From an uncultured Desulfobacter sp. (GTDB lineage Bacteria; Desulfobacterota; Desulfobacteria; Desulfobacterales; Desulfobacteraceae): DNA of 64,000 nucleotides. The notes under the pieces are model-generated. The model did no database searches. It was not told where the DNA came from and was given only the letters and a program-made list of their open reading frames with translations. The stretch is taken from the NCBI GenBank assembly GCA_963665095.1, contig OY762069.1:3520001-3584000 (forward strand). The letters are read 5' to 3'. Numbering within the stretch: position 1 is the stretch's first letter; every line of letters starts with the position of its first letter. The translations under genes were made by a program, and so were the position numbers. Shown here in pieces: positions 1-9,508 of the stretch.

Positions 1-294
1 GCCACCAGAGGGCTTGCCACACGCTGCATCCCCGGCATCAAAGCCAACACGGTGCAATGCCTTTCCCATGTGATGCAGAGCACAGCCCTTGCAACGGTGC
101 TGGTGCCGGTGCTGGGTTATGACCGGGTGGAAGAGATTGTCCGGGCGGCAAAGGCATCTGGCCGCTCCATCCGGGAAGAGATTATCCATCAGGATATTGC
201 TTCCGAAGAGATTGTTGACACACTGCTGTCACCCAAACGGCTCTGCAAGTTAGGCTTTATTCCCGATGAGTTCGATGGGGTAAACAGAAAATGA
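1..294 (+). CDS. aspA: Aspartate ammonia-lyase (fumarase/aspartase superfamily), 3' fragment
   Basis: Frame open from base 1: ...RCIPGIKANTVQC...STALATVLVPVLGYDRVEEIVRAAKASGRSIRE...LLSP, a typical aspartase/FumC C-terminus; aspA is a known neighbour of hydEFG genes. Confidence 0.75.
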   Translation, partial: ATRGLATRCIPGIKANTVQCLSHVMQSTALATVLVPVLGYDRVEEIVRAAKASGRSIREEIIHQDIASEEIVDTLLSPKRLCKLGFIPDEFDGVNRK

Positions 295-341
295 AGTTCA
301 TGACAGGATTGAAAAAGGATTTCCCCTAAGGAGAATTGCTT

Positions 342-1547
342 ATGTCCAGTAAGGCCCCCCGCGGTGTTCGTCTCGTTATTGCGCTGGTTGGCAGGCGCAA
401 TGCGGGAAAATCGTCTCTTATCAATGCCATTTCCGGACAACAGATTGCCATTGTTTCCGACCACCCGGGTACCACCACGGACCCTGTGGCCAAGCAGTAC
501 GAGCTTCTGCCTCTGGGGCCGGTCACCTTTTATGATACAGCCGGGCTGGATGACGAGGGAGAACTTGGCGACCTGCGTGTCAAAGCCACCCGCAGGATTC
601 TGTGGCGGTCGGATGTGGCTGTGGTGGTGGTTTCAGAGCACGGCATCACCGATTATGAAAAAAAGATCATTGATGAAATCCGCGAACTGGAAATCCCCTT
701 TATCATGGTGTTCAACAAGAGTGATTTAAAAACACCTTCTGGCGAAGAGCTTGCCTTTTGCAAGGATAATTCACTGCCGTATATTGTCACTTCCGCCCTG
801 GACGGGGTGAATGTCACGGCGGTGAAAGAGGCGATCATCGACATTGCCCCGCCCGAAATCAAGCGTGAGCCGGTCCTGGCCGGCGATTTGATCAGTGAGG
901 GCGACTGGGTGGTCTGCGTGGTACCCATTGACCTGGCCGCCCCCAAGGGACGGCTGATCCTGCCCCAGGTCCAGGTGCTGCGTGAAATCCTGGACTGCGA
1001 TGCCCTGGGGATCATGGTTAAGGAGAGGGAGATTGACGAGGCCCTTTCGGGTCTGAGCCGGAAGCCCGCACTGGTGATCACCGATTCCCAGGTGGTGATG
1101 AGCGTGGCAGGAGACGTGCCTGAAGATATCCCGCTCACCACCTTTTCCATCCTGTTTGCCCGGTACAAGGGGGATATCGGCCAGCTCATCGCCGGGGCCG
1201 CCGCCATTGATGATCTTAAGGACGGGGACCGGGTCCTCATTGCCGAAGCCTGCTCCCACCATCCGGTGGCTGACGACATCGGCCGGGTTAAAATCCCGCG
1301 CTGGATCAACCAGTACACAGGCAAGGATTTGCATTTTGATGTCTATTCCGGCCACGATTTCCCCGACGACCTGGAGAGGTACAGGCTGGCGATCCATTGC
1401 GGGGGGTGTATGATCAACCGCGTGGAAATGCTGCGCCGGATCAAGGAGTGCCGCCGCCGGGGGGTGGCCATTACCAATTTCGGCCTGGCCATCTCCAAGG
1501 TCCAGGGGGTGTTTGACAGGGTGATAAAACCGTTTGGGAGGATGTGA
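342..1547 (+). CDS. hydF: [FeFe]-hydrogenase H-cluster maturation GTPase HydF
   Basis: GRRNAGKSS P-loop, PGTTTD, DTAG, NKSD, PKGRLILPQ, and Fe-S ligand motifs EACSHH and HCGGC; RBS AAGGAG 8 nt before ATG 342. Confidence 0.95.
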   Translation: MSSKAPRGVRLVIALVGRRNAGKSSLINAISGQQIAIVSDHPGTTTDPVAKQYELLPLGPVTFYDTAGLDDEGELGDLRVKATRRILWRSDVAVVVVSEHGITDYEKKIIDEIRELEIPFIMVFNKSDLKTPSGEELAFCKDNSLPYIVTSALDGVNVTAVKEAIIDIAPPEIKREPVLAGDLISEGDWVVCVVPIDLAAPKGRLILPQVQVLREILDCDALGIMVKEREIDEALSGLSRKPALVITDSQVVMSVAGDVPEDIPLTTFSILFARYKGDIGQLIAGAAAIDDLKDGDRVLIAEACSHHPVADDIGRVKIPRWINQYTGKDLHFDVYSGHDFPDDLERYRLAIHCGGCMINRVEMLRRIKECRRRGVAITNFGLAISKVQGVFDRVIKPFGRM

Positions 1548-3214
1548 TGCCTCCTGGAAAAAGCGGTACTGTTTTTGCCGGCAAGATTTTAGACCCGCCA
1601 CCTTCGGCCCGCCGAAAAATTTTCTGCCCGGGCAATACCCTGATTGTCTGCGCAAGACTGGCCTGCGGGCATGTGGAGGAGGCCTGGAGTTCCGGCCGGA
1701 TGATGCGCAACATGGATCTGCTGCTCCAGGGGGAGCTGGATGAACAGAGTCGTCCCTGTTTTGCCCTTCGGGCCAACGGTCTGTGCAATGCCGGGCATAA
1801 GCTGGCTGCAGTGCGGGCACTGGAAAACCTGGCCGGGATAACGCCGCCCAGAAATGCCTGTCTGGCCCGCAGCCTGGTCCAGGCCCTTCGATGTATTCAG
1901 GAGCATCTGCTCCATTTCTATCAGTTTCACCTCTCCAACTGGACCTGTCTGGCACCGGCCCTGCGGGCGGATCCCTGTAAAACAGCCCGGCTGGCCGAGA
2001 ATTCTGGCCGGGCAACCGGATATTTCAGGCAGTGCCAGCAGCGACTGCAGCCCCTGGTCCAAGGCAAAGGGATCAACGGGTTGGGTCTGCGGGATCATGA
2101 GGATTACTGCGGATCAAATGAGTTCCATCTTCTGGTCTTCAGCCACAGCCTGGAATCCCTCCAGACACAGGCGCTGCTCAACAGGGCGTTAGGGTTGATG
2201 GGCTATGAAAACGGGCGGTGTAAAGCCTATCATATGGGTGGCCTTCCGGAAGATCTGAACCTGGGCGGAAAGGTTCTGCAGCACCTGCGCGATCTTCTTT
2301 TGCAATGCCGGGATTTTGTCTGTTCCGTTTTCCTTAAAGACCTTGAACAGGTGGCCCGAACCTATGGCCATTGGAAAGATCTGGCCAAAGGAAATACCTT
2401 TCTGGCCCTGGGCGATTTTGGCCGCCCCCGTGACAGCGAAGGTCAGCTCTTTCCGGCCGGTATTATCTGTCTGGAAGGGGTGACCCCAAAAATTGATCCG
2501 GTGCAGACCGGCCGGATCCGGGAAGATAAGAACCCGCAATGGAACCGCCTGGACCAGGGACACTACCGTCTGGATTTTGGGGATCATGGCCCTGGATTTC
2601 ACTGGGGTAAAGGTGATTTTCACTGGCTTACAGCCCCCCGCCACGGCAGCCACCCTTGCGAGGCCGGGCCCCTGGCCCGGGTGGCCGGCGCCTTTGCCCA
2701 TGGCCAGAAGGCGGTACACCAGGCGGTCAATGACTCTCTTGCCGCCAGCGGGCTTGAACCCGAAGATCTGAACTCCGCTTTGGGCCGCCTGCTGGCCCGG
2801 GGCATTGAATCTTCGGTGCTGGCCCAGACCACCCTGGCATGGCTTGAGGAGTTGGAGACCTCTCTATCCCCGGGAGAGAGCAGGATGGGCGAAGAGGTCC
2901 GCCTGCCTGCCGCAGGTATTGGCATCGGTCATGTGGAGGTGCCAAGGGGGGCTCTGACCCACACCATCCAGGTGGAAAAAAACAGAATCATCCGCCATGA
3001 CTATCTTATTCCCTCGTTGTGGAATTTTTCCCCGCGGGATTCAAACCAGGTGCGCGGCCCTCTGGAACAGGCGCTTTTGGGAACGCCGGTGACTGATCCG
3101 GATCACCCCCTGGAAATTTTACGCATTGTACATGCATTTGATCCCTGCAACCCCTGTCATGTGGTGGTGGAGGACATGGATTCCGGGAAGACGACTGTGG
3201 TGGATGGGGAATAG
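1544..3214 (+). CDS. Divergent [NiFe]-hydrogenase large-subunit homolog (L1 motif RANGLC, L2 motif DPCNPCH)
   Basis: AWSSGRMMR, EHLLHFYQFH, APRH...EAGPLAR, EVPRGALTH, IPSLWNFSPRD...GPLEQAL, HAFDPCxxC align with group-1 large subunits; start overlaps the hydF stop (GTGA). Confidence 0.85.
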   Translation: MMPPGKSGTVFAGKILDPPPSARRKIFCPGNTLIVCARLACGHVEEAWSSGRMMRNMDLLLQGELDEQSRPCFALRANGLCNAGHKLAAVRALENLAGITPPRNACLARSLVQALRCIQEHLLHFYQFHLSNWTCLAPALRADPCKTARLAENSGRATGYFRQCQQRLQPLVQGKGINGLGLRDHEDYCGSNEFHLLVFSHSLESLQTQALLNRALGLMGYENGRCKAYHMGGLPEDLNLGGKVLQHLRDLLLQCRDFVCSVFLKDLEQVARTYGHWKDLAKGNTFLALGDFGRPRDSEGQLFPAGIICLEGVTPKIDPVQTGRIREDKNPQWNRLDQGHYRLDFGDHGPGFHWGKGDFHWLTAPRHGSHPCEAGPLARVAGAFAHGQKAVHQAVNDSLAASGLEPEDLNSALGRLLARGIESSVLAQTTLAWLEELETSLSPGESRMGEEVRLPAAGIGIGHVEVPRGALTHTIQVEKNRIIRHDYLIPSLWNFSPRDSNQVRGPLEQALLGTPVTDPDHPLEILRIVHAFDPCNPCHVVVEDMDSGKTTVVDGE

Positions 3215-3241
3215 GGCCGGATAAAAAACTGGAAATAACAC

Positions 3242-4255
3242 ATGATGAAACGAAAAAACATATTAGACGCACTGAAAGATAAAGCCGGGCAGGAGGATCT
3301 CTTTGCAGCGGCAGACCAGGTGCGTAAAACCAACCTGGGCGACACAGCCCAGCTGCGCGGCGTGGTCCATTTTTCAAATTACTGCCGGTGCAACGACCTT
3401 TACTGTGGTCTGCTCAAGGATAATCCCGGGTGCAAACGGTTCCGCATGGGTGAAGATGACATTGTGGACACAGCCCTGGCCATTGCCGGCGCCGGCCTGA
3501 AAACCGTGGTCCTGCAGTCGGGTGAGGACCTTTATTACACAAGGGAAATGCTTTGTTCGGTTATTGAGCGGATACTTTCAAAGGCGGATGTGGCCATTAC
3601 CCTGAGTCTTGGGCAGCGGCCCAGAAAGGATTTTCAGGCGTTCCGGGCCGCCGGTGCCCAGCGCTATCTCATGAAGCATGAGACCATGAACCCGGACCTT
3701 TATTCAAGGATGCGTTCGGGCCTGACACTGTCTGACCGGCTGAAGACCATTGATGACCTGCGGGAACTTGGGTTCCAGGTGGGCGTGGGCAATATTGTGG
3801 GCCTGCCCGGCCAGACGATTGCGGACCTGTGCGAGGATATCCTGTTTTTCCAGGATTTCCAGCCGGATATGATCAATATCGGCCCTTTCATCCCCCATGC
3901 CCAGACCCCGCTCAAAGATGAACCGGCCGGGGATATAGAGCTGATGCTCCGGGTGTTTGCCCTGACACGAATTGTCACCGGCAACACCCACATGGCTGCG
4001 GCCAACACTGTGGCCACCCTGGACCCTGAACAGGGCCAGTACCGGGCACTGACCCAGGGCGGCGCCAATGTTATCATGCCCAACTGCAATCCGTTTCAAA
4101 AAAGTAAAACAGACAAAATAGAATATGAGTTTCAGATTACCACCCATAAACGGTATGTGTCCGTGGATGAGGCAAGAAATGTGCTTAAACGGGCAAAGCG
4201 AACTATAGACAAGGGGAAAGGACACTCCCTTAAAATAAAAGGAGACGCGTTTTGA
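3242..4255 (+). CDS. HydE-like radical SAM protein (BioB/HydE family) with atypical cluster motif
   Basis: LRGVVHFSNYCRCNDLYCGL, TVVLQSGED, LSLG, RYLMKHET, VGLPGQT, IGPFIPHAQTPL, GANVIMPN; C-terminus diverges from canonical HydE. Confidence 0.8.
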   Translation: MMKRKNILDALKDKAGQEDLFAAADQVRKTNLGDTAQLRGVVHFSNYCRCNDLYCGLLKDNPGCKRFRMGEDDIVDTALAIAGAGLKTVVLQSGEDLYYTREMLCSVIERILSKADVAITLSLGQRPRKDFQAFRAAGAQRYLMKHETMNPDLYSRMRSGLTLSDRLKTIDDLRELGFQVGVGNIVGLPGQTIADLCEDILFFQDFQPDMINIGPFIPHAQTPLKDEPAGDIELMLRVFALTRIVTGNTHMAAANTVATLDPEQGQYRALTQGGANVIMPNCNPFQKSKTDKIEYEFQITTHKRYVSVDEARNVLKRAKRTIDKGKGHSLKIKGDAF

Positions 4256-5007
4256 TTAAAGTCGCCATATACGGCAAGGGAGGCATTGGTAAATCCACAG
4301 TGACATCAAGCATTTCTGCTGCCTTAGGCGTTCAGGGATACAATGTCATGCAGATCGGCTGCGATCCCAAGACCGATTCCACCATCAATCTTCTGGGCGG
4401 TAAGGCCCTGACTCCCATCCTTCAGTATCTCCAGGAACAGGGACGTCCTGATACCCTGGACGATATTTCCAGGCGCGGGTTTGCCAATACTGTCTGCATG
4501 GAGGTGGGCGGTCCCACCCCGGGGGTGGGCTGCTTTGGCCGGGGCATGCTGACAGCCTTTGAACTCCTGGACGAGATGGGGGCCTATGATACCTGCCGGC
4601 CGGATGTTGTGTTTTACGATATCATGGCTGATGTGGTGTGTGGCGGCATTGCCGTGCCCATGCGCGAGGGGTTTGCCGACAAGGTCTGCATTGTCACTTC
4701 CGGCGAAAAGATGGCGCTTTTGGCAGCAAAAAACATTATAACGGCCCTGCGCAATTTTGCCGACCGCAACTACGCCGAACTTGGCGGGCTGATCCTCAAC
4801 TGCCGGGACATGCCTGACGAAGTGGCGCGGGTGGACGCCTTTGCAAAGGAGATGCAGACCGAAGTGATCGGGGTGATCCCCCGGGACAGGGCCATCCATG
4901 CGTTTGAGGAGGATGGCAAAACCATTGTGGAGGGGGATCAGACCCTGCCCACCTCGGTCTGTTTTTTTGATTTGGCTAAAACCATTATCGGGTTTAAAAG
5001 TGAATAA
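4252..5007 (+). CDS. Nitrogenase iron-protein-like ATPase (NifH/CfbC/BchL family)
   Basis: YGKGGIGKST, IGCDPKTDST, EVGGPTPGVGCFGRG, DVVCGG (both [4Fe-4S] Cys retained); TTG start overlaps the upstream stop. Confidence 0.9.
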   Translation: MIKVAIYGKGGIGKSTVTSSISAALGVQGYNVMQIGCDPKTDSTINLLGGKALTPILQYLQEQGRPDTLDDISRRGFANTVCMEVGGPTPGVGCFGRGMLTAFELLDEMGAYDTCRPDVVFYDIMADVVCGGIAVPMREGFADKVCIVTSGEKMALLAAKNIITALRNFADRNYAELGGLILNCRDMPDEVARVDAFAKEMQTEVIGVIPRDRAIHAFEEDGKTIVEGDQTLPTSVCFFDLAKTIIGFKSE

Positions 5008-5017
5008 GGATATTTGT

Positions 5018-6316
5018 ATGGATCTGGATCAAGCCCGCATCAGGGTTGAACATTTACGCAAGAAGCCGGATTTTCCCTTTGCGCCTCTGGAAGGGGTTGG
5101 CCCGAACCTGGCCGGCTGGGGGGTGATCGAGACCTCCCTGATTCTGCCCGAGTCTGTGGCAGTGATGGTGGGGCCCTCGGCCTGCCTGCGCCATTCAGCC
5201 TTTATGGCCCATGCCAGGGGTTTTACCGAACGCTTTTATATGCTGTGCGTGCCGGAACTGGACATGTCCATGGGTAATCATCTGTCCCGGGTGGAGGCCG
5301 CCATCAAGGATATTGCGGACCGGCGCAGTGAAAAGGTCCTTTTCCTGATTGTGGGGTGTCCGGACTATATCCTGGGCACGGATTTCACAGGCGTGATCAA
5401 ACGCCTGGAGGCATCCACGGGCAAAAAAATAATTCTGGGGGCCATGGCGCCCATTACCATCGGGATGAAAGAGTCACCCTTTACCTCGGCCTATACCTCG
5501 TTTTTTGAGTTTTTAAAGGATGAGCCCCGGGTGCCGGATGACGGGGTGGTCAACCTTTTAGGAACTTTTATGCCGCTGTCGGATGACGGGGAGTTTTATC
5601 AGGTGCTGTCGGCCGCCGGCATGGATACGGTGCTGCAGATTCCCTTGTGCCGGGATCTGAAGCAGTTTTCAGGCATGGCCCATGGCCGGGCCTCGGTGGT
5701 CCTGCACCCCCTGGCCAATGGCCTGAGCGGCAAAATGGAGAAGGAGATGGGCATTCCCGCCTGTTTTGCCCCCACCTCCTACGGGTTTTCCGTGATCCGG
5801 GACCTTTACGGAAAAATCAGCGAGGCTGTGGGAAAACCTTTGGATATTGAATCCCATGAACAGTCGGCACGCAAGGCGGCGGAACCGTTGCTTGAAAATT
5901 TACGCGGCAAATCTGCGGCCGTGGGCTGCAGCATTAACGGAAGCCCCTTTGAACTGGCCCTGTTCCTGGTTCAACATGGTGTGAATGTGGAGACCATTTT
6001 TGCCCGGGGCGCCATCAAACCTTACGAATGGGACCTCATCGAACAGTTGCGCGGGGCAAAACCGGATATCCAGGTATACAATGCCTCCCATCCGGCCTTG
6101 TGCGGGCAGACAACCCCTTTTAACCAGGTGGAGATCGCCTATGGCGTTGACGCGGGCATTTTCTGTGTCAATGCGGCCAATGTGCCGCTGTCACGCTACC
6201 AGGAGCAGAAATACGGGTTTGAAGCCACGGTCTGGATGCTGGAACATAGCTGCGAGGCCCTGGCCAATCCGGTGGACAACTATGACTGGATCTACCGGCA
6301 CAATTTTTTGATATAA
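5018..6316 (+). CDS. Nitrogenase component-1-like oxidoreductase subunit A (NifD/NifE/BchN fold)
   Basis: GPSACLRH, ELDMSMG, VGCPDYILGTD, VNLLG, PTSYG; RBS AAGGA before ATG 5018. Confidence 0.8.
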   Translation: MDLDQARIRVEHLRKKPDFPFAPLEGVGPNLAGWGVIETSLILPESVAVMVGPSACLRHSAFMAHARGFTERFYMLCVPELDMSMGNHLSRVEAAIKDIADRRSEKVLFLIVGCPDYILGTDFTGVIKRLEASTGKKIILGAMAPITIGMKESPFTSAYTSFFEFLKDEPRVPDDGVVNLLGTFMPLSDDGEFYQVLSAAGMDTVLQIPLCRDLKQFSGMAHGRASVVLHPLANGLSGKMEKEMGIPACFAPTSYGFSVIRDLYGKISEAVGKPLDIESHEQSARKAAEPLLENLRGKSAAVGCSINGSPFELALFLVQHGVNVETIFARGAIKPYEWDLIEQLRGAKPDIQVYNASHPALCGQTTPFNQVEIAYGVDAGIFCVNAANVPLSRYQEQKYGFEATVWMLEHSCEALANPVDNYDWIYRHNFLI

Positions 6317-6325
6317 GGATCATTT

Positions 6326-7543
6326 ATGAAAGAATATCATCATCTCCTCCCCCTGGCCACGGGCTATTTCGGGGTCAGTTCGGCGCTCTATGATTTCGGT
6401 GGGTTAGTGGTCATCTACGGGCCTGCGGGCGGTGCATGGCATATCAATATCGAGGATGAACCGCGCTGGTACCGGGGGCCTGCCACGGTTGTCGGGGCAG
6501 GGCTTCTGGAAATGGATGTCATCCTGGGCAATGACGACAAATTCATCAACAATATCGTGAAGACCGCCAAAGGGTTGAACAGCCCGTTTGTGGCCCTGTC
6601 AGGCACCCCGATCTCGGAAATTATCGGGACAGACCTTAAAGGGTTTGCCCGGACCGTGGCAGCCCGGACCGATATCCCGGTGTTCATGGTGCCCACGGCC
6701 GGCTCCGAACCCTATCCCGAGGGCGCATCCAAAGCGCTTCTGGCCCTGGCAGACACCTTTATGGACCCGGATGCCCCTAAACGCCCCAAAGGGGTCAATG
6801 TGCTTGGGGCCATTCATCTTTCCACGGGCAAGGAAGGCCATCTTGATCCTCTGTTCAAAGCGGTTCAGGATGACGGGTTTGAACTGGTAAGTGTCCTTTC
6901 AGCCCCGGTTTCCGGACAGGAAGATCCCCTGGAGGGCGTGCGCATGGCACCGGGAGCCCGGATCAATGCCGTGGTCTCCACCAGCGGGATCGCCCTAGCT
7001 GAAAAAATGTTTGCAGAATATAAAATCCCCTTTGTGGCGGGCATGCCTGTGGGGCTGTCCGGCCGTGACGCCTTTCTGGCCATGCTGCACAGGGAAAGCC
7101 CTGATTTTCAGGTACCAAAGAAAGAAAAAACACCCTATAAACACGCCCTGATCATTGGCGAGCCGGTTCTTGGATATGGGATCCGGCATTGTCTGCGCTA
7201 CGACTTTGGCATCCCAAAGGGGGACGTGGTCTCAGTGACTCCCAGCGATCCACTTTTCAAGGCGTCCCAGGGCCGGGCAGGCCTTTTGGCCGAACGTGGA
7301 CCGGCTGACCTGGACACAGATGACGAACAAGCGATAGCCCAACTCATGAACAACCGGGAAGTGGACCTGGTGGTGGCAGACCCCTGTTACCAGCCCCTGC
7401 TCAAGAATAAGGCCGCTTTCATCCCTGTACCCCATGTGGCCATGAGCGCCCGCATCCATTGGGACATGGACTACGAATACGTTATGGACAACGGTTACGC
7501 CTATCTGGCGTCCTATTTGTCAGGCAATGGCCCCTGTTTATAA
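6326..7543 (+). CDS. Nitrogenase component-1-like oxidoreductase subunit B (NifK/NifN/BchB fold)
   Basis: GVSSALYDFGGLVVI, EDEPRWY, LLEMDVILGNDDK, GTPISEIIGTD, VNVLG, ADP motif; typical partner of the preceding gene in nitrogenase-like clusters. Confidence 0.8.
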   Translation: MKEYHHLLPLATGYFGVSSALYDFGGLVVIYGPAGGAWHINIEDEPRWYRGPATVVGAGLLEMDVILGNDDKFINNIVKTAKGLNSPFVALSGTPISEIIGTDLKGFARTVAARTDIPVFMVPTAGSEPYPEGASKALLALADTFMDPDAPKRPKGVNVLGAIHLSTGKEGHLDPLFKAVQDDGFELVSVLSAPVSGQEDPLEGVRMAPGARINAVVSTSGIALAEKMFAEYKIPFVAGMPVGLSGRDAFLAMLHRESPDFQVPKKEKTPYKHALIIGEPVLGYGIRHCLRYDFGIPKGDVVSVTPSDPLFKASQGRAGLLAERGPADLDTDDEQAIAQLMNNREVDLVVADPCYQPLLKNKAAFIPVPHVAMSARIHWDMDYEYVMDNGYAYLASYLSGNGPCL

Positions 7544-7645: not shown

Positions 7646-9508
7646 TCAACTGCGGCAGACTTTCGGCAAAGGAACGGCCAGGCTTAAATATTTGCCGTTT
7701 TCCTCAAACATCAATTTTTTATCTGTCATCATTTTCAAAAAAGGTGTTACTTTTTCCCGGGTCAATTCCTGAAAATGAAGAAGAATTTTTTCCAGTGACC
7801 GGTGCTGGCCGCAATAGAGATAGACTTCCCTGGAAAGCCCTTCCAGGCGGTGAGTTAAGGGCTCTTTTAAGAGCCGCTTCTGGCGGATAATCATAAACTC
7901 TTTTCCATCCCGATAACTTAGAATCGGCGTATCACCACCGGTTTGATGAATCCGGGTATATGTTTTTTCCCAGTCATGAACTTTTTGTCTCACCGGCCGC
8001 CACAGTTTTTTCTGGTATCCCATGTCACCGCGGTACCTCTGGATCAGAAAGGTCATGCTGCGGTGAATATGTTCCGGAAAAATTTTTGCATAATTGGGAT
8101 GGTTAAAAAGGGCCTTGACCCCAAAGTGCTCTGGATCATTGTATACACAGCTTCCATGGCCCATCCAGAAATGCACCAGTTTGGGAGGACGGAAAACCGC
8201 TGCAAACTCAATGTTTCGGAGGGTTTCATTCATGTCTTCAATATCACTGCCGGGAAAATGAAGTATCAGGTTGGCATTATTGGCAATACCTAAGCCTTCA
8301 CAGTGCTTCATGATTTCCAGATTCTGAATGGCGGTGGTTCCCTTGTTTAATTTTTTCAACAGACGGGAGCTTAAGGATTCGATACCGATCTGTACTTCGC
8401 TGACGCCGGCACAGCTCATTTTTTCCAGTACCCGTTTTGGGGTGGTGGCCCTGAGTTCACAGAAAAGTTTGAGGTCTTTTTTTAATCCGGACAGTTGATC
8501 AAACATCTCCAATGCGGTTTTTACCGGTATGAGGTTGTCCATGAACGTCACGGAAAGTGTGCGATATTTTGAAGTCAGATAATCTATTTCTCTGCTTACC
8601 TGTTCCGGGCCTTTGCACCGGTATCCCTGCCAGTTACGGTTAAGATTGCAAAAAGCACAACCTGAATGTCCTGAGTTGGAAGCCTGCCACCGGCATCCCC
8701 GGGAGGCCTCGGCCGGGAGCGCAGGGAAAAAACTTTTATCCGGCGCTCCTGTTTTCAGTAAATAAAAATAGTCGTCATAATCGGGAGCAGGCAGATTTTT
8801 GAGGTCTGGCATCTGGCCAAAGGTTACCGGGGCTTTACTTCTGCAGGAATGACGCGTAACAAGGCCGGGAATGCGGGAGATAGTATCAGTGTCAGCTGAA
8901 TTGCCAAGATGATGCACAAGGCTGCACAGGGGTCGTTCTCCTTCACCGTTAATGACAAAATCAATTTCCGGGAAAGCCTCAAAAAGGCCCTTAATGGTAT
9001 CTCCGGCAAACATGGAGCCGCCAATGACAATGGGGAGGGTTGGAAAGTTCTTTTTTATGGAACGGATAAAGTACAAAGAGGAGCAGAGCTGGCAAAAGCA
9101 GATTGAAAAGCCTGCCAGGCCCCAGCGATCCCAGTTGATACTGCGGATAAAGTCATCCGCAGTCTCTGCTGCCTGATGTGTGAGGACGTTGAAGTCGGCC
9201 CTGGATGACAGGGGCAGGCCCCTTGCTTCCTTGTGGAACAGCGCCTGGATGCGGTGGAATCGTTCCGGATATAAGAGCGCCGCATAAACGGATTCTGCCA
9301 GCCAGTTTTTTTTAGAAATTTCACGATAAAGGGGATAGCCGATGGCTGTTGCTAATTTCAAATAGAAATGGTGAGCCGCCACCTCAAGATCGGGAATCTC
9401 CCGGTTCAGGTATGCTTTCAGCGCACCAAGCTGAATGGATGGCCGGCTGAAAAGCGGCCAGGGGGCGGATATAAGCGCAATACGTGCTATTTGATTTTTA
9501 GAAATCAT
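7646..9508 (-). CDS. B12-binding radical SAM protein, RiPP-maturation C-methyltransferase type (TIGR03975-like)
   Basis: PWPLFSRPSIQLGALKAYL, GFS...Q, IVIGG, GEGE, PDYDDYF, EASRGC-x11-CAFC, QIGIESLS, KGTTAIQN. Confidence 0.8.
   Translation of the reverse strand: MISKNQIARIALISAPWPLFSRPSIQLGALKAYLNREIPDLEVAAHHFYLKLATAIGYPLYREISKKNWLAESVYAALLYPERFHRIQALFHKEARGLPLSSRADFNVLTHQAAETADDFIRSINWDRWGLAGFSICFCQLCSSLYFIRSIKKNFPTLPIVIGGSMFAGDTIKGLFEAFPEIDFVINGEGERPLCSLVHHLGNSADTDTISRIPGLVTRHSCRSKAPVTFGQMPDLKNLPAPDYDDYFYLLKTGAPDKSFFPALPAEASRGCRWQASNSGHSGCAFCNLNRNWQGYRCKGPEQVSREIDYLTSKYRTLSVTFMDNLIPVKTALEMFDQLSGLKKDLKLFCELRATTPKRVLEKMSCAGVSEVQIGIESLSSRLLKKLNKGTTAIQNLEIMKHCEGLGIANNANLILHFPGSDIEDMNETLRNIEFAAVFRPPKLVHFWMGHGSCVYNDPEHFGVKALFNHPNYAKIFPEHIHRSMTFLIQRYRGDMGYQKKLWRPVRQKVHDWEKTYTRIHQTGGDTPILSYRDGKEFMIIRQKRLLKEPLTHRLEGLSREVYLYCGQHRSLEKILLHFQELTREKVTPFLKMMTDKKLMFEENGKYLSLAVPLPKVCRS

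Follow-up and report, generated by a model that had tools for sequence, protein, structure and literature searches.

A 64,000-nucleotide stretch of the genome of an uncultured Desulfobacter sp. (contig OY762069.1, positions 3,520,001 to 3,584,000 of the forward strand; hereafter the window) carries a homolog of the large subunit of group-1 [NiFe]-hydrogenases whose metal site has been rebuilt. The gene, which we call X, heads a five-gene cassette that also encodes a HydE paralog (HydE*) and three nitrogenase-like proteins (NifH-, NifD- and NifK-like). HydG is regarded as the source of all carbon monoxide (CO) and cyanide (CN) in the [FeFe]-hydrogenase H-cluster. The cassette very probably replaces HydG, with the Hyp proteins of [NiFe]-hydrogenase maturation the likely source of CN and CO. 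X is a real, conserved component of this probable HydG-independent pathway. Its role within the pathway is less certain; by analogy with HoxV, we lean towards an on-path, nickel-free carrier of the Fe(CN)2CO unit.

A Large-Subunit Homolog with a Rebuilt Metal Site

The frame of X overlaps the stop of hydF and runs for 556 amino acids without a stop codon, as a sequence-only reading of the window had described it. Its product scores 335 bits against Pfam PF00374 and reaches the cut-off of no NCBIfam model. The motifs called by that reading stand where it had placed them (Table 1): L1 reads RANGLC, with Asn for the first Cys; L2 reads DPCNPCHVV, both cysteines being present and the terminal His being replaced by Val; EVPRG and IPSLWN are intact; and in place of TRIEGH, alignment with the intact group-1 large subunit of the same genome finds FCPGNT. 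The placement of the gene between hydF and a hydE-like gene likewise agrees with the profile matches of the neighbors. A sequencing error at the Asn-Gly codons was considered and rejected: contigs of four public runs, from four studies, agree at 1772-1786, with no other letter there among the 40 differences listed of 44. A protein 99% identical to X (P0002) also reads RANGLC.

A homolog search returned 64 proteins; of these, 54 share at least 41% identity with X and 10, which are canonical large subunits, at most 35%. X was aligned with 52 of the 54 (n = 53); P0002, which is nearly identical, and P0047, a partial sequence, were set aside. All 53 match PF00374 alone; X proteins are 520-578 amino acids long. 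The roles of the metal-site residues (the catalytic Glu, the Mg ligands, the Ni- and Fe-binding cysteines and the CN-binding Arg and Ser) are established for the canonical enzymes. At the position of the catalytic Glu (Glu14) the family has Gly in 47 of 53 members and Glu in 2. The Mg-binding Glu42 is replaced by Asn, Asp, Gly or Ser, and His is not among the common residues at the H530 position, both Mg ligands being lost. The first-Cys position of L1 is His in 42 members, Asn in one and Cys in one, and a new cysteine, Cys79, stands beside it (51/53). Another new cysteine, Cys28, occupies the former Arg of TRIEGH (49/53). Three of the four canonical cysteines are kept, namely Cys81, the second of L1 (53/53), Cys535, the second terminal Ni ligand (52/53), and Cys538 (49/53). 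Arg468 is found in all 53, residue 491 is Ser in 51 and Thr in 2, and Asn31, Asn82 and His85 are invariant. The NxxC form of L1, whose conservation the sequence-only reading had left to an alignment, is therefore no family signature (1/53); the Asn-Gly of this genome is an outlier, echoed by two relatives (G464 and G610). The loss of a Ni ligand and of the catalytic Glu, which had also been described, is real, but the site has been rebuilt with Cys28 and Cys79 while keeping Cys535.

X is thus a maintained, non-catalytic-looking paralog: it is under purifying selection, forms a separate clade and has lost the catalytic and Mg-binding residues. The ratio of nonsynonymous to synonymous substitution rates (dN/dS) is 0.24-0.50 in eight pairs, some of which contain upstream frame extensions, vs. 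0.08-0.27 for hydE* and the nifD-like gene. In three-taxon estimates it is 0.28-0.32 on the branch of this genome's X and 0.27-0.40 on the sister branches. In a quick tree search (the careful search was unfinished), 18 members of the family group together on a single long branch, apart from 31 canonical subunits, with a Shimodaira-Hasegawa-like approximate likelihood-ratio (SH-aLRT) support of 100. A structural model built on the 53 sequences predicts with confidence the full-length large-subunit fold (predicted local distance difference test score, 88; predicted template modeling (TM) score, 0.91), and the C-terminal extension appears in it as two strands. The best matches of X in sequence and in fold are group 1b large subunits (1FRV, E 3e-84; 1YQ9, TM 0.78, 32% identity). 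X carries no frameshift or stop at the 22 related loci, described below, of the two families having it. At these loci no small subunit lies near X, nor does this genome have one to spare, its two group-1 small subunits each preceding their own large subunit; a cognate small subunit, named by the sequence-only reading as part of a possible refutation, was not found.

The Cassette and the Absence of HydG

The order X-hydE*-nifH-nifD-nifK is found at 22 of 22 related loci, with X always first and directly upstream of hydE*. The loci come from 20 of 251 genomes of the family of a Pseudodesulfovibrio record (the family sample) and, within the family to which this genome belongs, from 2 of 150 other genomes. 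Its genus is represented by 24 other genomes, all of them without X, and in the wider phylum this genome alone among 301 reaches the family score level.

This genome (G000) is a single contig, 97% complete, and encodes two [FeFe]-hydrogenases with all three H-cluster motifs intact in both. Its best score against the HydG model TIGR03955 is 47.9 bits, vs. a cut-off of 312, and that match is PylB-like. HydA is present here and in 22 of 22 X-bearing relatives, as is HydF in all 22. Thus, all 23 X-bearing genomes have an [FeFe]-hydrogenase together with HydF, and 19 of them are without HydG, which occurs in 4 of the 20 in the family sample and is absent from G000, G311 and G327. HydF itself is found in 20 of 20 X-bearing genomes vs. 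131 of the 251 in the sample as a whole. Among HydF-bearing genomes without HydG, X is present in 16 of 26, or 17 with G594, whose X is cut by a contig end; among those with HydG it is present in 4 of 105. Over all 28 cassette genomes, 24 are without HydG and none is without HydA or HydF. In a phylum sample of 135 genomes, 15 have HydF, 4 of them without HydG; three of these four carry the cassette and G049 does not match. None of the 11 HydG-bearing genomes of that sample is among the cassette matches of a search whose genomes are not all named.

The usual operon, hydAB-TM1266-hydG-aspA-hydE-hydF, is seen in G686 and G622. It is cleanly without hydG in G534, G522 and G494; from that of G550, G512, G552 and G594, hydE is missing as well as hydG. 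In G487, hydG is internally deleted: the remnant (L205:2715-3149) holds residues 1-132 followed closely by 435-465, beside aspA-hydE-hydF. G577 keeps hydG and a canonical hydE, and its nifH-like gene is frameshifted (L129:11778-12544), the sole broken cassette gene among 26 loci. The canonical hydE of G451 is highly diverged (L111:10905-11903; 198 bits, under the cut-off; long branch) and HydE* is also present. A hidden HydG was sought and rejected, the best matches being HydE*, the PylB-like gene here and a gene inside the thiamine operon of G451.

Cassettes Without X and the Link to Hyp Genes

With a profile of the NifD-like protein, the cassette was found in 4 further genomes of 331 (G071, G102, G163 and G261), which belong to two other families (f44 and f35). 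At each of these four loci HydA and HydF are encoded as well, HydG is absent, and X is not found. In G163, G071 and G261 the operon runs in the order hydA, a small subunit, TM1266, hypE, hypC, aspA, hydF, hydE*, nifH, nifD, nifK, hypF and hypD; that of G102 has, of the hyp genes, hypF only. Separate copies of hypC and hypD lie elsewhere in G163 and G071. Two genomes of the genus of G261 have aspA-hydG-hydF-hydE instead.

Where X is present, a link to the hyp genes is seen as well. A second hypD, its motifs intact, lies directly behind the cassette in 9 of 20 genomes, vs. none with a second copy among 60 HydG-bearing controls that we chose from 101 HydG-bearing, X-less genomes. Downstream (3') of the cassette, hypC is found at 12 of 20 family loci, where no structural hydrogenase genes were detected. 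The idea that the cassette-linked HypD proteins form one specialized clade was abandoned, as it takes five changes on the tree.

The operon copies of HypC (L143:3858-4112, L144:10807-11094 and L145:15062-15316) have an extra internal Cys (KACPMF or KVCPMF) and, when translated as far as the stop codon, a Cys-containing tail. These cysteines may be additional metal ligands and could conceivably substitute for X.

HydE* and the Nitrogenase-Like Proteins

HydE* scores 261.7 bits against TIGR03956 (cut-off 254.6) and is the only HydE of this genome. Its radical S-adenosylmethionine (SAM) motif is CxxxDxxC in every one of 28 copies, a set that groups as a single clade; at the second-Cys position Asp is found in 80 of 84 HydE* proteins, vs. 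Cys in 36 of 36 canonical ones. Ten fixed positions differ between HydE* and these 36. Arg159-to-Lys was discarded as a HydE*-specific change, Lys being present also in 33 of the 36. Both tyrosines of the C-terminal motif are missing from HydE*. The residues with which Thermotoga maritima HydE handles Fe(I) intermediates, Met224, Met291 and Lys309 (PMC11826987 and PMC10114646, each in part), have equivalents in HydE*: Met210 (84/84), Met279 (83/84) and Lys303 (83/84; this match lies beyond the printed alignment and was read from the canonical set). The Arg54 equivalent is also kept.

The NifH-like protein is under the NifH and CfbC cut-offs (nifH, 274 vs. 394), and its cluster cysteines, 94 and 130, are present in 26 of 26 sequences. 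In the NifD-like protein Cys56 and Cys114 are invariant (35 sequences); the NifK-like protein has no conserved cysteine within its first 280 residues. At what we take to be the P-cluster ligand positions, the cassette proteins do not have the cysteines on both subunits that NifHDK has. The NCBIfam nifD and nifK models give no match to either. The best solved match to the nitrogenase-like proteins is 9D9U/9FMG (E 2e-18), labelled 'Nitrogenase'; 9FMG is presumably methylthio-alkane reductase.

Relatives of the NifD-like protein occur in Thermodesulfobium narugense, Lebetimonas and Ca. Desulfofervidaceae, and a relative of HydE* in T. narugense (P0135, P0242, P0142 and P0145). Elsewhere this genome encodes the PylB-like radical SAM protein, and nifH-like genes recur at a minimum of four further loci, of which one includes a D/K-like pair as well (G000:C1:899155-900303, 206056-206784, 257365-258096, 4852508-4853239 and 6139832-6143077).

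A Proposed Pathway and Its Alternatives

From the gene patterns, motif changes, purifying selection and fold, which are observed, we infer the following chemistry. HypE, HypF, HypC and HypD would make Fe(CN)2CO, as is established for [NiFe] enzymes. X would accept the unit as an immature large subunit does and would never be loaded with nickel or cleaved, to judge from its motifs and the precedent of HoxV, which carries Fe(CN)2CO and no nickel and receives the unit from HypCD (PMC12134894 and PMC3534401, each in part). Reduction or remodeling of the unit may then fall to the NifH-, NifD- and NifK-like proteins, with HydE* possibly adding sulfur and dimerizing it on the retained methionines. 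Finally HydF, with ammonia derived from AspA, would complete and deliver the 2Fe centre, an established step; aspA beside hydF has been linked to ammonia supply for the dithiolate bridge (PMC11736057, in part).

We hold it somewhat probable that X hands Fe(CN)2CO made by HypCDEF to HydE* and the nitrogenase-like proteins, in place of HydG, in building the H-cluster. For the scheme as a whole, a HydG-free H-cluster from imported Fe(CN)2CO, a repurposed large-subunit carrier, a nitrogenase-like ATP-driven reductase and an Asp-ligated radical SAM enzyme, the chances seem to us about even. A Ni-free carrier or scaffold, or else a novel active site, had been proposed from the sequence alone. With CxxC gone, selection maintained and the small subunit missing, the carrier still appears the best reading of X, but the NxxC then singled out is not a conserved feature.

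A number of observations weigh against the proposal. X is not universally needed, because it is missing from four of four cassette operons of f44 and f35. Where present, it evolves about twice as fast as its cassette partners and is the least constrained of the three genes measured. Of the 53 members, 4 do not have Cys538, one of the two Fe-bridging cysteines (in one case the position is a gap); the X of the HydG-less G494 is among these four. The Fisher p of 1e-10 for X against HydG is an overstatement, because related genomes are not independent. Four genomes hold both the cassette and HydG. Conversely, HydF is present, HydG is absent and no X or cassette was detected in nine family genomes (G466, G505, G513, G523, G570, G587, G588, G605 and G683; the search of the 251 was aimed at X) and in G049. 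Gaps in the assemblies might account for these exceptions, or a further route might exist; as for a hidden HydG, the nine have at most ThiH-length matches of 190-216 bits. The one hypCDEF set of this genome lies 10-14 kb upstream and is general, no copy being dedicated to the cassette. Finally, the Hyp unit has two CN and one CO per Fe vs. one CN and two CO in the substrate of HydE, a CN-for-CO change that no proposed step accounts for.

An unlikely alternative is that X is a catalyst in the same HydG-free route, with a new metal site (Cys28, His78, Cys79, Cys81, Cys535 and Cys538) that might, for example, supply extra CO, swap a CN ligand or assemble two irons. The new cysteines are conserved and flank the old site, Cys535, needless for a mere iron carrier, is kept, and the invariance of Asn31, Asn82 and His85 would fit an active site. 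His78 and Cys79 are, however, both gone in this genome, G464 and G610, all of them HydG-less, and a catalyst is hard to square with the X-less operons and the weak constraint on X.

It is quite unlikely that X stands off the path. In that reading it would store or trap Fe(CN)2CO, or cyanide that has been set free, and so raise the yield, and HydE* and the nitrogenase-like proteins would be supplied straight from HypCD. The operons of G071, G102, G163 and G261 would then dispense with X naturally, the relaxed constraint would be explained, and transient storage has been suggested for HoxV and HupK (PMC12134894, in part). Against this, at every one of the 22 loci of the two families having it, X is unbroken and hydE* follows immediately.

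We consider it very unlikely that the cassette makes another cofactor or metabolite, the hydG pattern reflecting shared ancestry and the [FeFe] enzymes being matured otherwise or inactive. Nitrogenase-like proteins do serve many unrelated reductions. HydE* has lost one radical SAM cysteine and both C-terminal tyrosines, HydG is retained in four carriers, and aspA-hydF, which adjoins the cassette at 11 of 22 loci, is outside the stretch covered at the other 11. Yet the cassette lies inside the hydA-hydF operon in four distant genomes, hydG has been deleted from its own operon in several separate carriers, and HydA and HydF accompany the cassette without exception.

That X is a decaying hydrogenase gene, as its loss of His78, Cys79 and Cys221 (kept by most relatives) might suggest, has next to no probability and is refuted by purifying selection: in line with the sequence-only reading, its homologs are without CxxC (Cys in 1/53) and its branch dN/dS is like that of its sisters and not near 1, and the family is one clade on a long branch with a confidently predicted full fold.

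Gene Neighborhood in the Window

The features of the operon are collected in Table 1.

Table 1. Features of the X operon, in positions of the window
Feature	Positions	Strand	Support and remarks
aspA, aspartate ammonia-lyase-like gene, 3' end	1..294	+	478 amino acids; starts 1.14 kb upstream of the window
hydF, H-cluster maturation GTPase	336..1547	+	TIGR03918 556.7 bits, cut-off 325.55; sole copy in the genome
X, group-1 [NiFe] large-subunit homolog, metal site rebuilt	1544..3214	+	PF00374, family alignment, model
CPGN in place of RIEG (TRIEGH motif)	1625..1636	+	catalytic Glu to Gly, Arg to conserved Cys
L1 motif RANGLC	1769..1786	+	family version (Q/R)AHCLC; alignment, n = 53
EVPRG (2936-2950) to IPSLWN (3008-3025)	2936..3025	+	equivalent to CN-ligand-binding residues of canonical enzymes; alignment, n = 53
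L2 motif DPCNPC without terminal His (DPCNPCHVV, 3140-3166), then retained C-terminal extension	3140..3214	+	
HydE*, HydE paralog with CxxxDxxC (3383-3406) and changed substrate pocket	3242..4255	+	TIGR03956
NifH-like ATP-dependent reductase	4252..5007	+	PF00142 251 bits
NifD-like subunit	5018..6316	+	PF00148
NifK-like subunit	6326..7543	+	PF00148

The operon (window 1-7000 and 1 kb upstream) is 54-60% G+C vs. 48.7% for the genome. Because its G+C content is shifted and X is found in 0 of 24 other genomes of the genus, the cassette is, on these sequence grounds, possibly a recent acquisition. Converging on the cassette from the opposite strand (7646-9508, -) is a gene for a radical SAM C-methyltransferase of the maturation of RiPPs, peptides made by the ribosome and then modified (TIGR03975, 371.8 bits, above the cut-off).

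Significance and Comparison with Known Systems

In the literature searched, whose coverage left out most subscription journals and supplements, there is no description of a HydG-independent H-cluster route with nitrogenase-like, HydE and Hyp genes. Five Clostridium acetogens without a recognizable hydG have been reported, with no firm explanation offered in the part of that source drawn on here (PMC9431212). If the proposal is true, there would be a second, tyrosine-independent way of maturing [FeFe]-hydrogenases, uniting [NiFe], [FeFe] and nitrogenase machinery. Two hydrogenase classes held to be independent would be joined by a direct biosynthetic link, a nitrogenase-like family would gain a function and the HoxV idea would extend to a new client. 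Cultured carriers of the cassette are named in databases, and the proposal is directly testable.

HoxV of Cupriavidus necator and HupK of Rhizobium leguminosarum are inactive large-subunit homologs, and X is proposed to work alike. They serve the [NiFe] large subunit via HoxL/HupF and lie in hydrogenase operons of Pseudomonadota, whereas X is tied to [FeFe] maturation genes. HoxV is shorter and has lost both first cysteines; X is full length, forms its own clade beside the group-1 large subunits and keeps the first cysteine of L2. X is set apart from the two by its gene neighborhood (hydF, hydE* and nif-like genes).

Like the group 1b periplasmic large subunits (the HynA type of Desulfovibrio), X keeps Cys81, Cys535, Cys538, Arg468 and Ser491. 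Unlike them, it is without the catalytic Glu, the first Ni cysteine, the Mg-binding Glu and the terminal His, has the new Cys28 and Cys79 (the latter lost from the copy in this genome), and is accompanied by neither a small-subunit nor a protease gene. Of the features of an active group-1 large subunit, the fold and the CN-binding residues are present in X; the RxCGxC of L1, the terminal His of L2, the catalytic and Mg-binding Glu and the small subunit are not.

The cassette resembles NifHDK, NifEN, DPOR and CfbCD in combining a NifH-like reductase with two PF00148 subunits. It differs from the known nitrogenase-like reductases in scoring under every NCBIfam cut-off and in a K-like subunit without conserved N-terminal cysteines.

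Compared with canonical maturation by HydE, HydF and HydG plus AspA, HydF and AspA are ordinary, the HydA motifs are intact and the iron-handling residues of HydE* are kept. What distinguishes the cassette genomes is that HydG is mostly gone, HydE* is altered, and nitrogenase-like and Hyp genes have been added.

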